IMG/VR virus record: IMGVR_UViG_3300048881_000780
From: a virus
Taxonomy: Duplodnaviria; Caudoviricetes
DNA: 64,000 nt
Direction: 5' to 3' (one strand)
Shown: positions 2,741-61,908 of the stretch, piece by piece
Position numbering within the stretch: position 1 is the stretch's first letter
How the letters are laid out: each line of letters begins with the position of its first letter
The notes under the pieces: generated by a model
Database searches by the model: none
Told to the model about the DNA's origin: nothing
The model's input: only the letters and a program-made list of their open reading frames with translations
Translations under genes and position numbers: made by a program

Positions 2741-2886
2741 TTGAGTCTTTATTGTATTTTGGCAATAGAGTCTAACTTAGGTGAAGACCTAGCTCTGCGA
2801 ATATCACTAGTTGATAGGCAAAACAATTTGAGAATTCATTAATTTTAAAACTAATAATTCTATACTTTGACAACTCGCAGACTCAA
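2741..2886 (+). ncRNA. candidate structured leader RNA, copy 1
   Basis: Closing stem TTGAGTC/GACTCAA, hairpins at 2747-2770, 2778-2791 and 2831-2861, stem CTGCGA/TCGCAG; motif 2866-2885 shared with 22313-22332. Confidence 0.6.
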
Positions 2887-2913
2887 TTAATTTGTATAGT
2901 ATTGGAGTTAGTT

Positions 2914-3645
2914 TTGAAAAATCTAAAAATCACCAACAAGAATGAACTTATTAAATTAAAAGAAGATTTCTCGAAAGAGTATAAGAAGTTCTTTAATCAA
3001 GATCTCAAGAATTCAAAAGTGGAACAATTTCTAGCACAACTATATGGGGCAAAGAACTTTAATACCCTCATGGGATCTTTTGAAAATAGCGAAAATATCG
3101 AATTCAAATCTTTTGAAGAATTCCAATTATTTATTGAAGATCAGGAAAACCCATATTCTAAGAGAAAACTAGCGCTCGTTGAGTATTTTCCCTCTCCTTA
3201 TATTGAAATAGAAGTTACTGAAAATTATGATAAAAGCGGAAATTTTAATACTAATAGAATTCATTATATAGATGGTGACGCAATTGCCGATTGTGAAGAA
3301 ATTTCTAAATTAAAGGCCTTTTTAAAGAATTTGAAGCTCTCTGGAAAAGAATCTGAGTTATCTATTATCTATGCTCGCTTAATGGATTTAGATACTGATT
3401 ATACGGCCCAGGCGATATTTCAAGGTTACGCTGGTGCAGACTATCTTGAATGGGAAGAGTGTATGAATAGTATAATTAATACCTTTAATTTCTATAGAGA
3501 GATATTCAGTGGAGACCTCTTCGGTGCTCTAATGTTCTCTATGGATTTTCTATTATTTTGTAATGATGGTATGATCAGCGATAGCGTTGTTACCCTACTC
3601 GATAATACTTTCACTCATGTCGATATAAATAGATCATTTTCATAA
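2914..3645 (+). CDS. protein with Glyoxalase_8-like helical N-terminal domain (paralog of 22363-23082)
   Basis: TTG start after GGAG; LKNSKVEQFLAQLYGAKNFNTL aligns with IRNSKVEAFMADFYGFKDYNSL. Confidence 0.7.
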   Translation: MKNLKITNKNELIKLKEDFSKEYKKFFNQDLKNSKVEQFLAQLYGAKNFNTLMGSFENSENIEFKSFEEFQLFIEDQENPYSKRKLALVEYFPSPYIEIEVTENYDKSGNFNTNRIHYIDGDAIADCEEISKLKAFLKNLKLSGKESELSIIYARLMDLDTDYTAQAIFQGYAGADYLEWEECMNSIINTFNFYREIFSGDLFGALMFSMDFLLFCNDGMISDSVVTLLDNTFTHVDINRSFS

Positions 3646-3702: not shown

Positions 3703-4101
3703 ATGAGTGAGATGTTAAATGACACGAGACTTCAATTATTGATGACAGGATACAATGACACTGTATTACTGGTGGTCCTTACTCTGGTACTCATCGGGTT
3801 GGGTTTATCCTTCATTCAAAAAAATCAAATTTCATTTCTTGTTCTATTAATTGCGACACCTATGGTGATTTTTATAAGTATCAAAACTGATCCAGTTTGT
3901 TTATCTAAAGCTCCTTTCATGAAAACTCAAGCGATTGACTTTTCAAAATATCTCCATAAATTCCCAGTGTATGACTTAAAAAGTAAGAAGTTTGTCAAAG
4001 TTGACTATTCTGACTATAAGATAGTCAAGTGTTCCCTGGAAGATTTGGATACAATTAAGTCGAAAACATCATTAATAAAAAAGATCAAAGGTCATTATTA
4101 A
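3703..4101 (+). CDS. 2-TM membrane protein, IDFSKY family (paralog of 19434-19910)
   Basis: PVCLSK..IDFSKY..FPVYDLKSKKF..IVKCS shared with 19434-19910. Confidence 0.7.
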   Translation: MSEMLNDTRLQLLMTGYNDTVLLVVLTLVLIGLGLSFIQKNQISFLVLLIATPMVIFISIKTDPVCLSKAPFMKTQAIDFSKYLHKFPVYDLKSKKFVKVDYSDYKIVKCSLEDLDTIKSKTSLIKKIKGHY

Positions 4102-4114
4102 CAAATTGCGTTAA
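4098..4114. promoter_or_regulatory. 17-bp palindrome TTAAC-N7-GTTAA
   Basis: TTAACAAATTGCGTTAA, identical to 1314-1330. Confidence 0.7.
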
Positions 4115-15168: not shown

Positions 15169-15981
15169 CTAGGCGCAAAGTGCCACTAAATCAGGCACTT
15201 GGGCTGTAGATGAAAACTCGAGGTACTCATCCATGTACTTTGGGTATTTAGCTCCCTTTACTTGCTTTAATCTAAGAGTCTTTTTAAGATCTCTCTCTAA
15301 GTTGGCCATCTTCTTTCCAAGCTCTGGACGAAGTTTGGCCGCGTTCTTATGTTCAGAGATCCTGCCATTTACACAGAATACACATGAGAGCCTAGAGAAC
15401 CCAAGTGAGTAGACGTGATGAGGAGCTTGTCCAGCATTTTTAATCTCACTGAAGACTTCCTCAGTGTTATATTCAAAGATTGGTAACCAATCATAGATTG
15501 TGTGAGTTGGGTGCTTTTTGGTCATATGCATCCCAGAAGTTCCCTTTCCCTTACTTAAAGTAAATGGTTCCTTTAACATTCTTCTTTTGGATTCATCAGC
15601 TCTCATTCCTGTGGCATTAATGGCCGTCTCTAAGTTGTTTTCATACATATAATTATGAATAAACTCTTTGATTGGTTGAGTCTTTAAAAAATCTGTACAA
15701 AACTGGTGTTGACCACTAGGAAGTCTTCCGTATTTTCTTGCTAACTGAAAAAAGTCTAATTCCGCCTCTACGACGTGAACAGGTAGACCAAAGCTATTTT
15801 CTTCGATCCATGGTTTCATCTCTTCCCACTCCATTTCCCCAAGATCAGCATGTACCAGAACAATTTTCTCTTTGAGCCCAAGTCTAACCAGCTTTGCTAG
15901 CATGGCCTGAGAATCTTTTCCACCAGAGTGTGAAACGAAAATTACATCTGCATTTGAAATTTCTTCATTAAGTTTTATCAT
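15169..15981 (-). CDS. PAPS reductase-family protein (copy 1)
   Basis: SHSGGKDS PP-loop, CTDFLK, GMRADES.RR, RLSCVFC. Confidence 0.85.
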   Translation of the reverse strand: MIKLNEEISNADVIFVSHSGGKDSQAMLAKLVRLGLKEKIVLVHADLGEMEWEEMKPWIEENSFGLPVHVVEAELDFFQLARKYGRLPSGQHQFCTDFLKTQPIKEFIHNYMYENNLETAINATGMRADESKRRMLKEPFTLSKGKGTSGMHMTKKHPTHTIYDWLPIFEYNTEEVFSEIKNAGQAPHHVYSLGFSRLSCVFCVNGRISEHKNAAKLRPELGKKMANLERDLKKTLRLKQVKGAKYPKYMDEYLEFSSTAQVPDLVALCA

Positions 15982-16060
15982 AAATCCCCCTTCCTTAACC
16001 CTAACACGTTGTGTCATAAAAATAAATAAGAATTTATAAATAAAAAACTTCTTTACAATA

Positions 16061-22133: not shown

Positions 22134-22150
22134 TTAACACAACTTGTTAA
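22134..22150. promoter_or_regulatory. palindrome just upstream of a TTGACC/TATACT promoter
   Basis: TTAACACAACTTGTTAA. Confidence 0.7.
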
Positions 22151-22193
22151 TAATTAATTGACCATTATCAGATTAATAAGTTATACTTAGATT

Positions 22194-22352
22194 GATCCAA
22201 TGTGAATCTCACCTCTTGGTTCAAACAGAGGAGACTCTGGCCCTAGGACTCATAAGCGAGATGGCGATATCTTTGATCATTTAATTGCTTAAAATCTTTA
22301 TAATTATGCAATTTTGATAATTCCTAGACTCAGATTTATACTTGCATTGGTG
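22194..22352 (+). ncRNA. candidate structured leader RNA, copy 2
   Basis: Closing stem CCAATGTGA/TTGCATTGG, hairpin CCTCT/AGAGG, stem CTAGGA/TCCTAG, hairpin AATTGC/GCAATT; motif shared with copy 1. Confidence 0.6.
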
Positions 22353-22362
22353 CGGAGATTTT

Positions 22363-23082
22363 ATGAAAAACCTAATTATTCAAACAAAAGAAGATCTACA
22401 AAAAGCGAAAGAGGATTTTAAAAACTCCTACTTTAATAACTTTAATCAAAAAATAAGAAACTCAAAAGTTGAAGCCTTTATGGCCGACTTCTATGGTTTC
22501 AAAGATTATAATTCGCTACTTGGTTCATTTAAGAATGAAGCTATGAAATTTAGCAGTTTTAATGAAATGCTCTCCTATTTTCAAGGTGAAAGTGCCACTT
22601 ATGAAGAAAAGGTTCATATTGCGTCAAAATACTTTCCATTAAATATGGGAATGGTTGAATCTTCGGGCAATAAAAACTTGGGGGTAATTGTAGCAGTTGA
22701 AGATGGACCTACTATGAGTTGTTATCGGGACGTAGAAGAGCTTTATGTGTGGTTTAACTTCTTTAATAGGTCTAAGCTCAATAAATCTATTGAGAAGGCC
22801 GTAGAGCGCTCTAGAGAGCCCGTATTATCTAAATCAAGGAAGAGATATGCTCTCGATGATATACTTCCTCATGAAAATATTAACGATGACTATTATGACA
22901 AAGAGGAATACACCAAGACGTTGTATCATTTGATCTATTTTTACCGAGAATTATTCAATGGTAGCTACCGTCAAGCAATGAAAGATGCGCTAGATTTTTT
23001 GTATTTCACTGCCCAAAAAGAAGAGGTTGAAATTGCTGTTTTTAGAGATAGAAAAGATGGCGTTATCTCACTCGCAAAATAA
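22363..23082 (+). CDS. protein with Glyoxalase_8-like N-terminal domain (paralog of 2914-3645)
   Basis: ATG after GGAG; shared N-terminus and shared FYRE(L/I)F.G...DFL.F C-terminal block. Confidence 0.7.
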   Translation: MKNLIIQTKEDLQKAKEDFKNSYFNNFNQKIRNSKVEAFMADFYGFKDYNSLLGSFKNEAMKFSSFNEMLSYFQGESATYEEKVHIASKYFPLNMGMVESSGNKNLGVIVAVEDGPTMSCYRDVEELYVWFNFFNRSKLNKSIEKAVERSREPVLSKSRKRYALDDILPHENINDDYYDKEEYTKTLYHLIYFYRELFNGSYRQAMKDALDFLYFTAQKEEVEIAVFRDRKDGVISLAK

Positions 23083-23096
23083 GTTAGGAGAAGTTA

Positions 23097-23369
23097 ATGA
23101 AAATTGTGAAAGTAATAGTTATGATCTTAATGTCAATTTCACTTAATGCAAAAACGGTTACCCTTAAAGATATTAAAGTTGGTGGCTGTTTTACAACTTC
23201 AGCTACTATTAATTTTTCTAGTAATCCATATATCTTGCATATAAAATTAAGCGCTAATACTTACGGGCATATCTATCGTGGTTCTCATCTAATAGTGGAA
23301 GAGGAGCGTTTTTCTCATCATATAGTTACACCTATCCCATGCTTTGGATATTACAAGATTCACAATTGA
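23097..23369 (+). CDS. small secreted protein
   Basis: Signal peptide ending SLNA. Confidence 0.6.
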   Translation: MKIVKVIVMILMSISLNAKTVTLKDIKVGGCFTTSATINFSSNPYILHIKLSANTYGHIYRGSHLIVEEERFSHHIVTPIPCFGYYKIHN

Positions 23370-25916: not shown

Positions 25917-25933
25917 TTAACACCACTTGTTAA
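25917..25933. promoter_or_regulatory. palindrome/-35
   Basis: TTAACACCACTTGTTAA. Confidence 0.7.
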
Positions 25934-38511: not shown

Positions 38512-40257
38512 ATGAAAAGATACGTTTCAAAAACTAGATACTTACAATTTTTAAAATGTCCACTGGATATGTATATGAATACATATAATAGAGATCTCCT
38601 AGAATATGATCAGGGAATGAAAGATAGAATCGCTGAAGGTGATGAAATCGAATCATTATACGCAGTTAAGAATCCAGGCATGTTAGTTGATGAGGATTTT
38701 AAGGATTGGCAAGCGCAAAGAGATTCAACTGTAGAATACGAAAAGATGAAGGCCTCTAGAGTATTTGAAGCGACAATTTTAACTGACTGTATGAAGGCCT
38801 GTAGAGTAGATGCTCTTGAGTACAACGGTGACGGTAGTGTTACACAAAAAGAAATTAAAAACACAACTTCAATTAAAGAGAATGGAAAATATAAAGAGAA
38901 GTATATTCTCGATGCTTCTTTTCAGAGATGGTGTTTAAATTTAGCGGGTTACGTTGTTGATAGAACGTATATTGTATATCTAAATAAAGACTACGTTAGA
39001 GATGGTGAACTTGATCTTGACCAATTATTTATTGAAGAGGATGTAACCGATCAGTGTTTAAGACAGATTGAAAAATTTGAAAGTGATGATAAAACATCTG
39101 AAATTCTAGAAATTTTAGCCGATAGAGAAAATCCACCAGAAGTAACAATGTCTCTAGACTGTATTAAAGCAGGGAGAAATTGTAACTTTGAAAAGCATTG
39201 CTCTAGTAAGTGTGGTTTTGACAAGGCCTTTACGAGTAGATTATTTAATGCTTCTAAGCAGTGGGCACTTAGAAAGAAAGTAGTAAATGAAAATAAAATC
39301 TTCAAAATGGAAGATATGCCAGAAGTATTAGCTAAGAAATTAGCAAAGTTTGCAAAGCTTGATTACAATTTCACAATGGAGGGAAAATCTCTCTACTACG
39401 ACAAAATGCACTTAACTAACTTTTTAGATAGTTTAAATTGGCCTTTATATCAATTTGATTTTGAAACTTTTAAATCAGCTATCCCTAGATTTGATAAGTC
39501 TAGTCCACATCAACAAATACCTTTTCAGTACTCTTGTCACAAACAAGAGAGAAATGGAGAAGTAACTCATTCTGAATTTCTTCACATGGAAAGAGGTGAA
39601 AGAGTTGGACTTAGCGACCCTAGAGAGAAGTTAATTATTGCAATGATTGATTCACTTGGAGAAAGTGGTGATATTTTGGCTTGGAACTCTTCTTTTGAAG
39701 AATCTAGAGTTAAAGAATTAATTAGAGATTTCCCTCAATATAGAGAAAAGCTAGTAGCTATCTTTAAGAGATTTAAAACAGTAGATTCTCCATTTACAAA
39801 TAGAATGATTTATCTTCCATCTATGAAGTCGTCTTGGTCACTTAAGTATGTAGGACCTAGTGTACTTGGCGAGGAAGTTAATGATTATTCTGATTTACAA
39901 GTATCAAATGGTGCAGAGGCCATGAGTATCTATAATGACTTAGCTAAGAACGCTCACAATTACTCAGATAATGACCTAGCTAGAATTGAAAAGGGATTAT
40001 TGGTATATTGTAAGTACGATACTGAGAATCCAACTATGATAGTTGATTTTATGCACTGTATAGTAGGTAGAAATGAGCTTATAAGCGATTTAACTAAGAA
40101 ATCTAACCCTGAGTTACTTAATCGTTGGAATGAGCTTAAAAAGGATTCTAGAGAGTATGAGACTAGTGAGCAGGCCATTATTTTTTCTTATATGCAAAAG
40201 AAAATACAGAATGAGGCCAAGAAAGATAAATTAGCATTTTTAAAGGCGGGGTTTTAA
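38512..40257 (+). CDS. DUF2779 protein (Cas4-like PD-(D/E)XK N-terminus + RNase H-like exonuclease domain)
   Basis: SKTRY..FLKCP, VDAL...EIK, FDFET...QQIPFQYS, SWSLKYV, YCKYDT. Confidence 0.85.
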   Translation: MKRYVSKTRYLQFLKCPLDMYMNTYNRDLLEYDQGMKDRIAEGDEIESLYAVKNPGMLVDEDFKDWQAQRDSTVEYEKMKASRVFEATILTDCMKACRVDALEYNGDGSVTQKEIKNTTSIKENGKYKEKYILDASFQRWCLNLAGYVVDRTYIVYLNKDYVRDGELDLDQLFIEEDVTDQCLRQIEKFESDDKTSEILEILADRENPPEVTMSLDCIKAGRNCNFEKHCSSKCGFDKAFTSRLFNASKQWALRKKVVNENKIFKMEDMPEVLAKKLAKFAKLDYNFTMEGKSLYYDKMHLTNFLDSLNWPLYQFDFETFKSAIPRFDKSSPHQQIPFQYSCHKQERNGEVTHSEFLHMERGERVGLSDPREKLIIAMIDSLGESGDILAWNSSFEESRVKELIRDFPQYREKLVAIFKRFKTVDSPFTNRMIYLPSMKSSWSLKYVGPSVLGEEVNDYSDLQVSNGAEAMSIYNDLAKNAHNYSDNDLARIEKGLLVYCKYDTENPTMIVDFMHCIVGRNELISDLTKKSNPELLNRWNELKKDSREYETSEQAIIFSYMQKKIQNEAKKDKLAFLKAGF

Positions 40258-43862: not shown

Positions 43863-43879
43863 TTAACATAACGTGTTAA
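43863..43879. promoter_or_regulatory. 17-bp palindrome TTAAC-N7-GTTAA
   Basis: TTAACATAACGTGTTAA. Confidence 0.7.
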
Positions 43880-44684: not shown

Positions 44685-45878
44685 ATGTCAGCAAAGAAGA
44701 AGGAAACTAAAAAAGATAATGAACTTAAGCGTTTTTTTAACCGTGAAGGTTTACAAGTAAACCTAGACTTTGAAAAAGAACTTAAGGCCATCGAAGAAAA
44801 TACTAAGATTGAAGCTGTTAGTGACCCTAGAGAATTAACTTTTGAACAAAAGGTCGCCAGATCAAAGGCCCTAATCATTGAGGCCGTTGAGCAATTTGGT
44901 ATCGACCAGGTATATACAGCATTCAGTGGTGGAAAGGATTCTGCCGTTGTTGCTCACCTGGTGGAGTCGATCTATCCAAAAATGGTTCCGGAAGTTTTCT
45001 GTAATACGGGCCTAGAATTACCTGAGATCGTTAAGATGGTTAAAAAGCACCGTGATCACTATAAGAGAAATGTAGTGATTTTAAGGCCAGTTAAGAGCTT
45101 TAGACAGGTTATTTCTGAGTATGGCTACCCTATCATCTCTAAACAGGTGGCGATGGCCATTTCTCGCTGGCAAAATACTAGTGATCCACTTCAGAGAATC
45201 CTTAGATGGCGTGGTGGAATCAATAGAAAGGGGAAAATGCAAAAAACTGGTGTTATCCCAAATAAGTTTAAGCACCTGGCACTAATGGGTGAATCTAAAA
45301 TTAAAGACTCTGAGGATTTCATGACGGATGAACTTAGAGAGAAGGTAAACGGAGCTCCAAACTTTAAGGTAACTGAGAGATGTTGTTACTTCTTTAAGAA
45401 GGCCCCTTTTGTTAAGTACGAAAAGGATCAAAAAAAGAAACTTGGACTTAAAAAGAGTGATAAATTTCTAGCTTTCACAGGTACTAGATCAGATGAGAGT
45501 TTTCTTAGAAAGCAGGACTTTTTAAAGTATGGTTGTAATGCTTTTAATAAAGGAAAACCAAGATCTAGACCTATCATGTTTTGGGATGACGAAGATGTAA
45601 ATAGATACATCAAAGAGTATAATGTAGAGATCTGTGAGGTCTACTATGATCAACATAGATTTTGCGAAGAAACTCAAAAGATCATTTTTGTTCCAGCTGA
45701 AGAGAGAACGGGCTGTATGTTCTGTGCTTATGGATTACATATGGACGTTAAAAAGGATCCAAAGAATACAAGATTTCATAGATTAAAATTAAGACACCCA
45801 AAGCTATATAAGTATTGTATGGAAAAGTTGGGATTTAGAAAAGTACTTAAGGAATATGTAGGGATTGATTTTGATTAA
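44685..45878 (+). CDS. PAPS reductase-family protein (copy 2)
   Basis: AFSGGKDS, CCYFFKK, GTRSDES, RTGCMFC. Confidence 0.88.
   Translation: MSAKKKETKKDNELKRFFNREGLQVNLDFEKELKAIEENTKIEAVSDPRELTFEQKVARSKALIIEAVEQFGIDQVYTAFSGGKDSAVVAHLVESIYPKMVPEVFCNTGLELPEIVKMVKKHRDHYKRNVVILRPVKSFRQVISEYGYPIISKQVAMAISRWQNTSDPLQRILRWRGGINRKGKMQKTGVIPNKFKHLALMGESKIKDSEDFMTDELREKVNGAPNFKVTERCCYFFKKAPFVKYEKDQKKKLGLKKSDKFLAFTGTRSDESFLRKQDFLKYGCNAFNKGKPRSRPIMFWDDEDVNRYIKEYNVEICEVYYDQHRFCEETQKIIFVPAEERTGCMFCAYGLHMDVKKDPKNTRFHRLKLRHPKLYKYCMEKLGFRKVLKEYVGIDFD
44748..44763. promoter_or_regulatory. 16-bp palindrome GGTTTAC-NN-GTAAACC, copy 3 (inside CDS)
   Basis: GGTTTACAAGTAAACC. Confidence 0.6.
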
Positions 45879-58935: not shown

Positions 58936-58977
58936 TTAACCACACGTGTAAACATATTTCTTGACATCACACGTTAA
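58936..58977. promoter_or_regulatory. back-to-back palindromes on divergent promoters
   Basis: TTAACCACACGTGTAAA (58936) and TTGACATCACACGTTAA (58961). Confidence 0.7.
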
Positions 58978-59005
58978 AAAATGTAATATCTATCTAGGGA
59001 GTGTT

Positions 59006-60235
59006 ATGAAAGATAAAATTGAATTTTTAAAAGTTGGTGGCTGTGTACGAGATCACTTACTAGGCAAAACGCCAAAAGATATAGACTATATAGCTTTAGG
59101 TGCGACTAGTGAAGATTTAATAAATATGGGATATAAACTAGTTGGTGAAAAGAAATTTGCAATCTTTTTAAACAGTAAAGGAGAGGAGGTTGCTTTACCT
59201 AGAACAGAGAAGCAAACGGGTAATCCATCTATGGGTAATTTTGAGATTAAAACAGGAGTTCCTTTAGAGGAAGATTTAAAAAGACGCGACCTAACTATAA
59301 ATTCGATGGCAATGAGGCAATTAGAGAATGGAGAATCTGAAATAGTGGATCCATATAATGGTCAAAAAGACCTTGAAAGTAGAGTATTAAGAGCTACGAG
59401 TAAAGCATTTGCAGAAGACCCTTCAAGAGTGCTTAGACTGGCTAGATTTAAGGCCGAACTGAATTTTAGTATTACGAAAGGGACTCTTAAGATGGCCCGC
59501 CGGATGACTAAAACAGAAGGTTATAAAAATATTCCTTATGAGTTCGTCTTAAAAGAATTAAAAAAGGTATCTCAACTTGATGACCCTACCCCATTTTTTG
59601 AAGTATTATCTGATGTTGACGGTCTTGATCTTATTTATAAAGGTCTACAGAATGCTGCAAATGTTTCTCAACCAATAATCCATCATCCAGAGGGAGATGT
59701 TTTCTCTCATATTAAATTAGTAGTAAAAAGAGCTATGGATTTATCTTTTGGTCTATCTACGGATGATAGATTTTCTATTTTCCTTGCTTGCTTATTCCAT
59801 GATATTGGAAAATCATATACTGCCAAAGAGTTGCTACCAGCTCATCATGATCACGACGAGAGAGGGGCTAAATACTTAGAAGAGAACCTAAAGAAAGTAC
59901 TCCCTAAGAATATTTTTAAGCTATGTCACTTTGTTGCTAAAAATCATATTAAATGTCATAGAATAAAGGAATTAAGGGCCAGCACAATAGTTAAACTTAT
60001 TGATAGTGCCAGAGGCGTAAATCCTCTACTTTTGAAAATATGTCTACAGGCAGATGCCCAAGGTAGAAAAGGTCTAGAATCTAAAACATATGAACAAGGA
60101 AGAATCCTTCTAGAATGCTTTGAGGTACTTTCAAGATCATTCAAAACTGGAGATATCAAACATTTAAAAGGAGAGCAAATTAGGCAAAGAATACATCAAG
60201 AAAAGGTTAGAAGAATAAAAATGATTGAACGATAA
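59006..60235 (+). CDS. cca: class II tRNA nucleotidyltransferase (CCA-adding enzyme) with HD domain
   Basis: VGGCVRD.LLG..PKDID, RRDLTINSMA, EDPSRVLRLARF, HHPEGDVFSH, LFHDIGK. Confidence 0.92.
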   Translation: MKDKIEFLKVGGCVRDHLLGKTPKDIDYIALGATSEDLINMGYKLVGEKKFAIFLNSKGEEVALPRTEKQTGNPSMGNFEIKTGVPLEEDLKRRDLTINSMAMRQLENGESEIVDPYNGQKDLESRVLRATSKAFAEDPSRVLRLARFKAELNFSITKGTLKMARRMTKTEGYKNIPYEFVLKELKKVSQLDDPTPFFEVLSDVDGLDLIYKGLQNAANVSQPIIHHPEGDVFSHIKLVVKRAMDLSFGLSTDDRFSIFLACLFHDIGKSYTAKELLPAHHDHDERGAKYLEENLKKVLPKNIFKLCHFVAKNHIKCHRIKELRASTIVKLIDSARGVNPLLLKICLQADAQGRKGLESKTYEQGRILLECFEVLSRSFKTGDIKHLKGEQIRQRIHQEKVRRIKMIER

Positions 60236-60390
60236 TTACCTACGCTTTTATTATATTGTTACTAATTATGACAATTATTTAAAAACCTACAAAAAAAACA
60301 AATAACCAGGGAGAAAGTTGTAAACGAGTATTAACTCTACGTTAAAGTATAGTAGATATATACGATAAAACAGTTTAAATATTTTATCTC

Positions 60391-60407
60391 TTGACACAAT
60401 ACGTTAA
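60391..60407 (+). promoter_or_regulatory. palindrome/-35
   Basis: TTGACACAATACGTTAA. Confidence 0.7.
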
Positions 60408-60523
60408 ATATGAAACAATGTTTAAAATTCAACCTACAGGAAGTTTCTAAGCTTCGTATCTGAAAAAGATATGAATGGGGAACTATGGAGAAAAATGAAG
60501 TAGAATTTAAATTTATTTAAATA

Positions 60524-60540
60524 TTGACACAATGTGTTAA
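60524..60540 (+). promoter_or_regulatory. palindrome/-35
   Basis: TTGACACAATGTGTTAA, 17 bp to TATCAT. Confidence 0.75.
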
Positions 60541-60573
60541 AACATGTATCATATACCTAAGCGAGGTATTTAT

Positions 60574-61746
60574 ATGATTAAGAGAGAAGACTTTAAAGAG
60601 TTTGTAGAACTAAAAAAAGGTAAAATAAGTACAGTAGATTCTGAATTTAAAAAAGCAGTTCTTGAACAAGCTTATGATAAATTTCAAATTGTAGAAAGAA
60701 GAGATTATCAAGAAGATTCGATCTTTCAAGCTCTCACGTATAATATGCTTGGATTAAAACCATTAATTCTAGCACCTACTGGAAGTGGTAAAACACTAAT
60801 GGGTATGATTACGGCAAATATGCTAAGTGAACTTACTGGAAACGATATTTCGTGGTGTGCTCCTAAAAAAGTGCTACTAGCTCAGGCCTTAGAGGACGCT
60901 GAAAAATTTGGTGTAAATATAAATACTCAATCATTATTTCAAAACGTAAATACGCTTAAGGGTGCAGGAATCTCTATTGAGGACGAGGCCCATCGTCAGG
61001 TATGCTCTACTGGCCTTAGCTTTAGAGAAAAAGTTCAACCAATGTACCTGAGAGAAGAAAATAAGAGTCGCTATCAATCCCTTGGTTTATCTGCCACTCC
61101 GGTAAGATTAGATAAGGCCTCTTTGTTTTATGATTTATTTATAAAAGAAGTATCTACAGGTGAGCTTGTAAAACGTGGAGTTCTATCATCATTTAACTAT
61201 TATAGGGCCCATTTAGATTGGACTCCTGAGAGTCTATGCGAAATGTACCTGAAAGACGCTAGTAAATGGGGTAAGACGATAATTTTCACAAAGACAATCG
61301 CTGACTCTAAGAAGCTAACTGAGCTATTAATTAAAAATGGTGTTAAAGCTTGTGAAGTTCATTCTAAAATGAGTGAAAGTGACCAAGATCAATCAATAGT
61401 TGGATTAAAGAGCGGTGAATTTGATGTACTAGTAAATGTAGATATTCTTAAAGAGGGATTCGATTATCCTGATTTAAAGACTGTGTTTATGAAACCAAGC
61501 TCGAAAGGTTTAACTATTCAAATGGGTGGACGAGTTTTAAGAAAGAGTAATAACTTCTCATTAAAAAATATCATTCAAGGTATGGTTTCTAAAAGTCATA
61601 TCTATAAGTACTCCAATGAAGCGGAAGCTGATTCAATATTTGACATTAAGAAAACTTCAAAAGGAAGTATTGAAATTACTGATAGTGGTATGCTCAAATT
61701 ATCAGATGGTCTATTTCTAGCAACTCAAATAATGCAATTTGATTAA
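60574..61746 (+). CDS. superfamily 2 DEAH helicase (ResIII-like)
   Basis: RDYQ, APTGSGKT, DEAH, LSATP, LKEGFDYP, QMGGRVLR. Confidence 0.9.
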   Translation: MIKREDFKEFVELKKGKISTVDSEFKKAVLEQAYDKFQIVERRDYQEDSIFQALTYNMLGLKPLILAPTGSGKTLMGMITANMLSELTGNDISWCAPKKVLLAQALEDAEKFGVNINTQSLFQNVNTLKGAGISIEDEAHRQVCSTGLSFREKVQPMYLREENKSRYQSLGLSATPVRLDKASLFYDLFIKEVSTGELVKRGVLSSFNYYRAHLDWTPESLCEMYLKDASKWGKTIIFTKTIADSKKLTELLIKNGVKACEVHSKMSESDQDQSIVGLKSGEFDVLVNVDILKEGFDYPDLKTVFMKPSSKGLTIQMGGRVLRKSNNFSLKNIIQGMVSKSHIYKYSNEAEADSIFDIKKTSKGSIEITDSGMLKLSDGLFLATQIMQFD

Positions 61747-61806: not shown

Positions 61807-61908
61807 CTACTTTTACTACATTTTAAATAGAGGTTTTAGTTAGTGAGATTGATAAGAAACTTGCTTAAAATAAATATAACAAAAAGTGTTAAATAATAAA
61901 TTTAATAC

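Follow-up and report, generated by a model that had tools for sequence, protein, structure and literature searches.

Structured leaders that respond to the protein encoded behind them are well known for ribosomal proteins and for a few phage proteins, each of these leaders being tied to one protein. Pseudoknots close to the Shine-Dalgarno (SD) sequence, together with conserved unpaired bases, are also a feature of translational riboswitches such as SAM-II, preQ1-II, and similar elements. Autogenous operators that form pseudoknots have been described for L20 of E. coli, which involves a long-range pseudoknot in rpmI-rplT (PMC1888825), for S15 and rpsO (PMC8470358), and for gp32 of phage T4 (PMC535899, PMC3014915). 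In all three of these systems, binding and repression have been established by experiment, and the leader mimics the primary nucleic-acid target of the protein (PMC1888825, PMC8470358, PMC535899, PMC3014915). Here we describe a leader RNA with a pseudoknotted 3′ domain that occurs twice in a sequence recorded as viral (Caudoviricetes; IMG/VR record IMGVR_UViG_3300048881_000780), ahead of two paralogous genes. The stretch that was analyzed, referred to below as the window, is 64,000 nucleotides (nt) long, is AT-rich, contains mostly genes without a known family, and is part of a 361-kb metagenome contig, which may be a giant phage, a plasmid, or a small cellular genome.

The first gene (copy 1, 2914-3645, + strand) encodes a protein of 243 residues, in which a basic three-helix N-terminal domain (residues ~5-57) is followed by an acidic C-terminal part of no known fold. 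Its paralog (copy 2, 22363-23082, + strand) lies 19 kb away and encodes 239 residues with 33% identity to copy 1. The leader that precedes both genes has a defined secondary structure, which is conserved throughout the family and is found exclusively in front of genes that begin with this N-terminal domain.

Fold and covariation of the leader

Both paralogs have an untranslated leader of ~175 nt behind a sigma-70-type promoter. In copy 1, the distance between the extended -10 element TGATATAAT (2728-2736) and the TTG start codon at 2914 is 177 nt, which agrees with the ~175 nt given in an earlier, sequence-only reading of the locus. The leader is ordered as P1, P2, P3 enclosing P4 and P5, and then a pseudoknot that contains the 3′ strand of P3. 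On the + strand of copy 1, P1 (2747-2770) is a 9-bp hairpin that can be extended by 2 bp across a U-U mismatch (2744-2773), and P2 (2777-2792) is the hairpin UUAGGU-GAAG-ACCUAG, the copy 2 counterpart of which is CAGAG-GAGA-CUCUG. The 5′ strand of the long-range helix P3 (CUGCGA, 2795-2800) is followed by the P4 hairpin UAUCA/UGAUA (2802-2821), which leads directly into a conserved GGCAA block (GGYRA), and by the AU-rich P5 hairpin AGAAUU/AAUUCU (2831-2861), whose 3′ strand overlaps P6 by 1-5 nt. The 3′ domain (2860-2899) consists of P6 (CUAUAC 2860-2865 with GUAUAG 2894-2899) and an inner helix (UUGA 2867-2870 with UCAA 2883-2886).

The inner helix has the form NNGA/UCNN and comprises 3-5 bp in 5/5 sequences. 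Together with P6 it encloses a 12-nt loop composed of YAAY, the P3 strand, and AC, which in copy 1 reads CAAC-UCGCAG-AC and thus contains the P3 3′ strand (2875-2880). Because this strand lies inside the loop closed by P6 and the inner helix, P3 crosses P6, which makes a pseudoknot of the 3′ domain and explains the invariance of the GAYAA and AGACUC segments, each of which is partly paired in the inner helix and partly located in the loop. The pseudoknotted core, which adjoins the ribosome-binding site, has ~20 conserved unpaired bases. Its 3′ edge is found 12-21 nt before the start codon at the five loci (15 nt in copy 1), and the SD sequence begins 2-6 nt past its end. In copy 1, the SD sequence GGAG (2904-2907, + strand) lies six bases before the TTG start codon (2914-2916), the latter being fixed by the protein alignment. 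No terminator was found between leader and gene in copies 1 and 2, and no conserved upstream open reading frame is present in the leaders.

The copy 2 leader (22197-22357, + strand) is built from the same set of helices, namely P1 (22197-22219), P2 (22226-22239), P3 (22243-22248 with 22322-22327), P4 (22249-22260), P5 (22282-22306), and P6 (22306-22311 with 22342-22347), followed by the SD sequence (22354-22357). Every helix has diverged between the paralogs, a different, bulged hairpin occupying the position of P1 in copy 2, while the unpaired core is kept. The 20-mer common to the two leaders (2866-2885 and 22313-22332, 16/20 identical) and the compensated stem, in which CUGCGA/UCGCAG (2795-2800/2875-2880) becomes CUAGGA/UCCUAG (22243-22248/22322-22327), are both as the sequence-only reading had reported them. 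The stem is P3, and it remains intact when all five known loci are considered.

Three further members of the family, L001-L003, are the only relatives of the two proteins retrieved by a profile search of 1.8 billion representative proteins, which stand for about 15 billion proteins; they are singletons on short metagenomic contigs. The leader is present in 5/5 known members, and the genes adjacent to it are unrelated at each of the five loci. The conserved unit is therefore the leader together with its gene, which bears out the earlier suggestion of a conserved module of RNA and protein.

All six helices pair perfectly across the five sequences, the encoded proteins sharing only 29-42% identity with copy 1. 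P3 is paired in 30/30 cells (100%) with double changes at 3/6 positions; shifting the 3′ partner by 1-3 columns lowers the paired fraction to 13-43%. Full pairing is also found for P1 (36/36 cells in four sequences, double changes at 5/9 pairs), P2 (25/25, 3/5), P5 (25/25, 3/5), and P6 (25/25, with 5/5 inner pairs covarying), and the inner 3 bp of P4 covary at 3/3. The double changes were counted over the pairs nearest the loop. For the helix set, sliding the 3′ partner by 1-3 bases reduces the pairing to 12-60%. The compensation links segments 66-74 nt apart, and six G-U pairs are compatible with the + strand only. A covariance model of the five leaders (R1) gives scores of 124-146 bits for its own members and ≤18 bits for the rest of the window. 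The 5′ hairpin and the AT-rich inner hairpin of the sequence-only reading are likewise present in 5/5 sequences.

The end-to-end closing stem proposed in that reading fared differently. The 8-bp pairing of UUGAGUCU with AGACUCAA, which would join the 5′ end to AGACUC, can form in copy 1 only and is not conserved. The conserved AGUCU flanks are more plausibly regarded as part of a longer P1, in which A-U replaces a G-C pair in L003. Other pairings were considered and discarded. An anti-SD role of ACUC, of the P3 3′ strand, or of the P2 3′ strand is not conserved, and neither is a pairing of P2 with codons 3-5, which is explained by the conserved K/R-N-L residues encoded there.

Protein searches of phage records, IMG/VR, and plasmids gave no relative, and word-indexed protein searches returned nothing beyond the family itself. 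At the DNA level, the core pattern GC-N-CU-NN-GR ... GAYAA-NYC-NN-AGACUC was scanned for, giving 17 stretches from viral contigs, at least 120 from metagenomes, and at least 120 from genome contigs. None of the 257 stretches listed from these scans is a true member according to the covariance model; the best of them (L009/L018 and L149) are chance matches, the one in L009 being inside a coding region. A comparison with Rfam 15 yielded no match to the window leaders at gathering or permissive thresholds, only chance-level hits to eukaryotic snoRNA and miRNA families. The leader class is thus absent from Rfam 15 and uncatalogued, consistent with the earlier reading, in which it was not recognized as a described RNA family.

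The N-terminal domain and its alphaproteobacterial counterparts

The five proteins have ~57 N-terminal residues in common, 17 positions being invariant, and also a C-terminal block. The N-terminal part is basic (isoelectric point 9.3-9.8), while the remainder is acidic (4.2-5.4). In L003, an open frame at 267-536 encodes a short form of 89 residues that consists of the N-terminal domain plus ~30 residues and is preceded by a complete leader; the other frames at this locus showed no trace of the C-terminal part. When modeled alone, the domain folds into three helices (9-27, 33-43, and 49-55) with a predicted local distance difference test score (pLDDT) of 85.7. The small helical N-terminal domain singled out in the sequence-only reading thus coincides with the conserved part of the protein, is basic, and stands almost alone in one relative.

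The same reading called the gene Glyoxalase_8-like, a description that can be retained in part. The first ~55 residues resemble PF20066 (Glyoxalase_8) in profile-profile comparison and in fold similarity; the Pfam threshold is missed, and the description does not extend to the rest of the protein. The whole proteins have no match in Pfam (up to E = 1) or PHROGs. An hhalign comparison of the window N-terminal domain with a profile of 25 PF20066 N-terminal domains gives 85% probability and E 5.9e-6 over 31 columns, and both sets share the motif S-x-x-[LV]-E-x-[VF]-A-x3-G-x-[KR]-D-[WFY]-N-[TS]-L. Models of PF20066 clusters in the ESM Atlas superpose on residues 6-62 with 2.0-2.4 Å over 52-56 residues, the template-modeling score over the whole length being only 0.2.

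PF20066 was found in 27/301 Alphaproteobacteria; a sample of 400 Gammaproteobacteria and a set of 14 control genomes gave no match. The alphaproteobacterial genes are preceded by a GC-rich leader of similar length, which has no match in Rfam. An alignment of 22 such loci (A9) reveals five helices, including two pseudoknots, with 90.5% of the cells paired, compared to 34-46% when slid, and double changes at 18/23 pairs. The covariance model built from it (R2) was used to search 151 genomes and located 14 sites, each directly upstream of a gene with the N-terminal domain and none elsewhere. The partner of the domain is Glyoxalase_7, a LON substrate-binding domain, or a ClpX zinc finger, or else there is none, and the leader is present every time. 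Two matches confined to the C-terminal part of PF20066 are without a leader. The Pfam model PF20066 seems to join two domains.

Several of the alphaproteobacterial loci deserve separate mention. In L281-L286, profile positions 8-58 of PF20066 form a separate module; the ClpX fusion has a zinc finger of the C4 type, and the lone form of the domain comprises 103 residues. In L261, a leader at 1216-1381 is located ~120 nt upstream of the PF20066 match. A partial leader match in L278 (3312-3414) is found ~1.4 kb upstream of a PF20066 match that is itself part of an open frame of 598 residues.

The two sets of leaders have the same order of elements: P2, a short linker, the P3 5′ strand, P4, GGYRAA, a variable part, the outer and inner helices, GRYAAY, the P3 3′ strand, a C-rich turn, the closing strands, and the SD sequence. 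Three short motifs are common to both, namely GGYRAA after P4, GRYAAY before the P3 3′ strand, and the C-rich turn after it. GGYRAA follows P4 in 4/5 window-family sequences, L003 having GUGCAA instead. In a MAFFT alignment, the GGYRAA block and the GRYAA-P3 block of the two sets fall in the same columns, the GGCAA block of the window aligning with GGUGAA. In both sets, moreover, P3 is a long-range helix whose 3′ strand lies in a hairpin loop, creating a pseudoknot just before the SD sequence, and the gene product begins with a basic three-helix domain with which the leader is exclusively associated.

The sets differ in their G+C content, which is 27-36% in the window family and 46-74% in the alphaproteobacterial leaders. 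The window family alone has the extra 5′ hairpin P1 and a longer P2, its inner helix pairs GA with UC where the alphaproteobacterial class pairs GG with CC, and its C-terminal protein domain is new relative to the PF20066 set. On the basis of these comparisons, the window leader is probably a distant, AT-rich relative of the PF20066 leader, that is, a probable rather than a demonstrated member of that class.

Possible roles of the leader

We tentatively propose that the leader is a translational operator to which the N-terminal domain would bind. The structured 5′ untranslated leader would be transcribed together with its gene from the sigma-70-type promoter, the gene product would attach to the folded pseudoknot through its basic N-terminal domain, and the complex would hinder binding of the 30S subunit, such that the protein limits its own synthesis. 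We favor this proposal because the occurrence of the RNA is tied to the domain instead of to a pathway, because that domain is basic, because the pseudoknot lies directly against the ribosome-binding site, and because the paralogs keep the unpaired core while all helices have diverged. Overall, an AT-rich, divergent PF20066-type leader that acts as an autogenous translational operator is the best explanation of the data, to be held with some reserve.

A number of results weigh against this explanation. The SD sequence takes part in no conserved helix, so its occlusion would have to be steric. Among solved structures, neither the N-terminal domain (best Z 4.2) nor the whole protein (pLDDT 60) finds an informative match, so it is the charge of the domain that argues for nucleic-acid binding. 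The five N-terminal domains score below the Pfam gathering threshold for PF20066, one of them at E 0.08, and where the 25 alphaproteobacterial domains have an invariant His and an invariant Trp, the window family has Lys and Phe/Tyr. The second pseudoknot of the alphaproteobacterial leaders, in which the P2 loop pairs with the segment after GGYRAA, has six covarying pairs in that set, whereas in the window family its 0-7 bp (shuffle P 0.08-1.0) lack clear support. Model R1 gave no match on 20 alphaproteobacterial loci and R2, with filters off, gave none at either window leader; since the two sets do not detect each other, their kinship is one that we infer.

The remaining points concern the alignment and the stability of the fold. 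The alignment comprises five sequences only, of which L001 and L003 are alike in P5 and P6. P3 was aligned by MAFFT without manual placing; for P4, P5, and P6 the position in each sequence was chosen by hand, and the single-sequence shuffle P values of P6 are modest (0.31, 0.056, 0.002, 0.054, and 0.065). The minimum-free-energy folds are no more stable than those of shuffled sequences (z -0.84 for copy 1 and -0.52 for copy 2), and the evidence for the structure is therefore covariation and not stability. Weak z-scores, the ease with which AU-rich helices are found, and the small number of sequences are also what one would point to if the similarity were due to chance in AT-rich intergenic DNA, with no functional RNA at all. 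This already disfavored view is hardly credible in light of the six helices that pair perfectly in five divergent sequences and of the gap between the covariance scores of the members and those of the rest of the window.

The conserved unpaired bases and a pseudoknotted core next to the ribosome-binding site are found in many translational riboswitches, and P5 and P6, which share 1-5 nt, could be alternative pairings. The leader might thus sense a small molecule, an ion, or temperature, its fold setting the level of translation and the N-terminal domain having an unrelated role. We consider this unlikely, given that all R2 matches in the 151 alphaproteobacterial genomes precede N-domain genes and 0 precede others, that the C-terminal domains are functionally unrelated, unlike the members of a metabolite-pathway regulon, and that neither a terminator nor a conserved anti-SD platform is present.

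The strict one-to-one link between RNA and domain, whatever the C-terminal domain, could also mean that the leader serves as the RNA component of a functional ribonucleoprotein, cut from the mRNA or acting within it, and that it builds or targets the active protein instead of providing feedback. Such a role would be in line with the domain-only short form keeping its RNA, and with the paralogs differing in every helix while sharing the unpaired core, a pattern one would anticipate where every protein has to recognize its own RNA. It is, in our view, somewhat less likely even than a sensor: searches revealed neither a terminator nor a processing motif, the structure always directly adjoins the SD sequence, which fits control in cis, and no similarity to known RNA-guided proteins was found. 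The guide RNA mentioned in the sequence-only reading has no support. In type III toxin-antitoxin systems, tandem repeats of a ~35-nt unit and then a terminator precede the toxin gene. An RNA antitoxin of this kind, also raised earlier, is unlikely because tandem repeats are absent; there is one copy of the RNA per gene and no terminator.

If the translational operator is the correct explanation, it may have a broader form, which we regard as possible and rather doubtful. The leader, as promoter-proximal RNA, and the N-terminal domain (~55 codons) would then constitute a portable, self-limiting cassette that can be fused to unrelated proteins. By binding the pseudoknotted leader of its own gene, as a nascent chain or in free form, the domain would cap expression of the attached protein, and divergence of the helices would keep the two paralogs from acting on each other's leader. 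The partners would be a VOC/glyoxalase fold, a LON substrate-binding domain, a ClpX zinc finger, and, in the present family, an acidic domain of no known family.

The promoters of the two genes introduce a further possibility. The sigma-70-type promoter of copy 1 (2708-2736, + strand) has the form TATACA-17 nt-TGATATAAT, with an extended -10 and 10/12 matches in addition to the TG, and that of copy 2 (22158-22187, + strand) reads TTGACC-18-TATACT. The -10 hexamer is located 8-10 nt before P1 in 5/5 loci, so P1 lies at the 5′ end of the transcript. A second sigma-70-like promoter of good quality, TTGATA-17-TATACT, is found inside the copy 2 leader (22314-22342), where it overlaps the GAYAA loop and P6. 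It could yield a short mRNA that bypasses the structure, which is another point against an operator in that copy. The counterpart in copy 1 has TTGACA, but with a 22-nt spacer; the internal promoter as the cause of the shared 20-mer holds for copy 2 only and was rejected.

The promoters are preceded by a DNA-level operator that is common to other promoters of the window. In copy 1 it is the imperfect palindrome TTAACAC-N3-TTGTTAA (2685-2701), 6 nt before the -35 hexamer, and in copy 2 it lies at 22134-22150 (+ strand), the distance to the -35 hexamer being 6-7 nt in both leader genes. The pattern TTAACAC-N3-KTGTTAA has 13 matches in the intergenic DNA of the window, both strands considered, against 0.11 expected; besides the two sites above, these are found at 25917-25933, 43863-43879, and 60524-60540, with near matches at 1314-1330, 4098-4114, and 61876-61892. 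The palindrome was not found upstream of L001-L003, though the leader is kept in all three.

One could accordingly ask whether the conservation is at the DNA level or passive, the 20-mer being a promoter (-35 and spacer) or a regulator site and the hairpins only stabilizing the 5′ end of the mRNA. The promoter-like reading of the 20-mer in copy 2, the TTGACA with which it begins in copy 1, the 5′ position of P1, which resembles that of known stabilizer hairpins, and the operator upstream of both promoters are compatible with such a view. It is nevertheless very improbable. The -35-like hexamer is not conserved in L001-L003, nor is its spacing, and a promoter leaves the compensatory changes between distant segments without an explanation, so that a reading as a promoter alone fails. 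The operator palindrome, moreover, is missing at loci that retain the leader.

Elsewhere in the window, each paralog has a small gene behind it that encodes a membrane or secreted protein (3703-4101 and 23097-23369). These two products show no sequence relationship, either between themselves or with the downstream genes of L001 and L002. The recognizable genes, located within 1-1002, 15169-16017, 38512-40257, 44685-45878, and 58961-61746, include an NAD-dependent DNA ligase, two PAPS-reductase-like genes, DUF2779, a CCA-adding/poly(A) polymerase-HD protein, and a DEAD-box helicase. Rfam, tRNA, and tmRNA searches of the window gave no match.

Comparison with described systems

A leader motif assigned to cluster 630,527 has been reported upstream of genes for glyoxalase, flavin monooxygenase, and NmrA-like proteins (bioRxiv 10.64898/2026.10.21.760802). 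It is likewise a 5′ leader shared by glyoxalase and other enzyme genes; the text of the preprint gives neither sequence nor structure for it. Our literature search found no paper that describes the window leader RNA, this preprint (October 2026) being too undetailed to compare.

The window extends the pairing of RNA and domain to a very AT-rich metagenomic element, in which it is associated with a new C-terminal domain and is present as two diverged copies. Annotation of the leader class would explain many long 5′ regions that appear "empty". If the domain binds the RNA, an unstudied Pfam domain would receive its first function, and RNA and protein together would make up a modular feedback unit that lends itself naturally to dosage control.

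With the SAM-II and preQ1-II riboswitches the window leader shares a pseudoknotted core that has conserved unpaired bases and lies close to the SD sequence. It differs from them in that its SD sequence is outside the conserved helices, that it has no match in Rfam, and that the RNA tracks a protein domain, not a pathway.

The resemblance to the L20, S15, and gp32 operators is found in the pseudoknotted 5′ leader beside the ribosome-binding site, in the gene product as the presumed ligand, and in the narrow distribution with one protein. What sets the window family apart is a presumed binding domain that looks like a portable N-terminal module: where the described leaders are each tied to a single protein, the RNA here follows a small domain that heads otherwise unrelated proteins.

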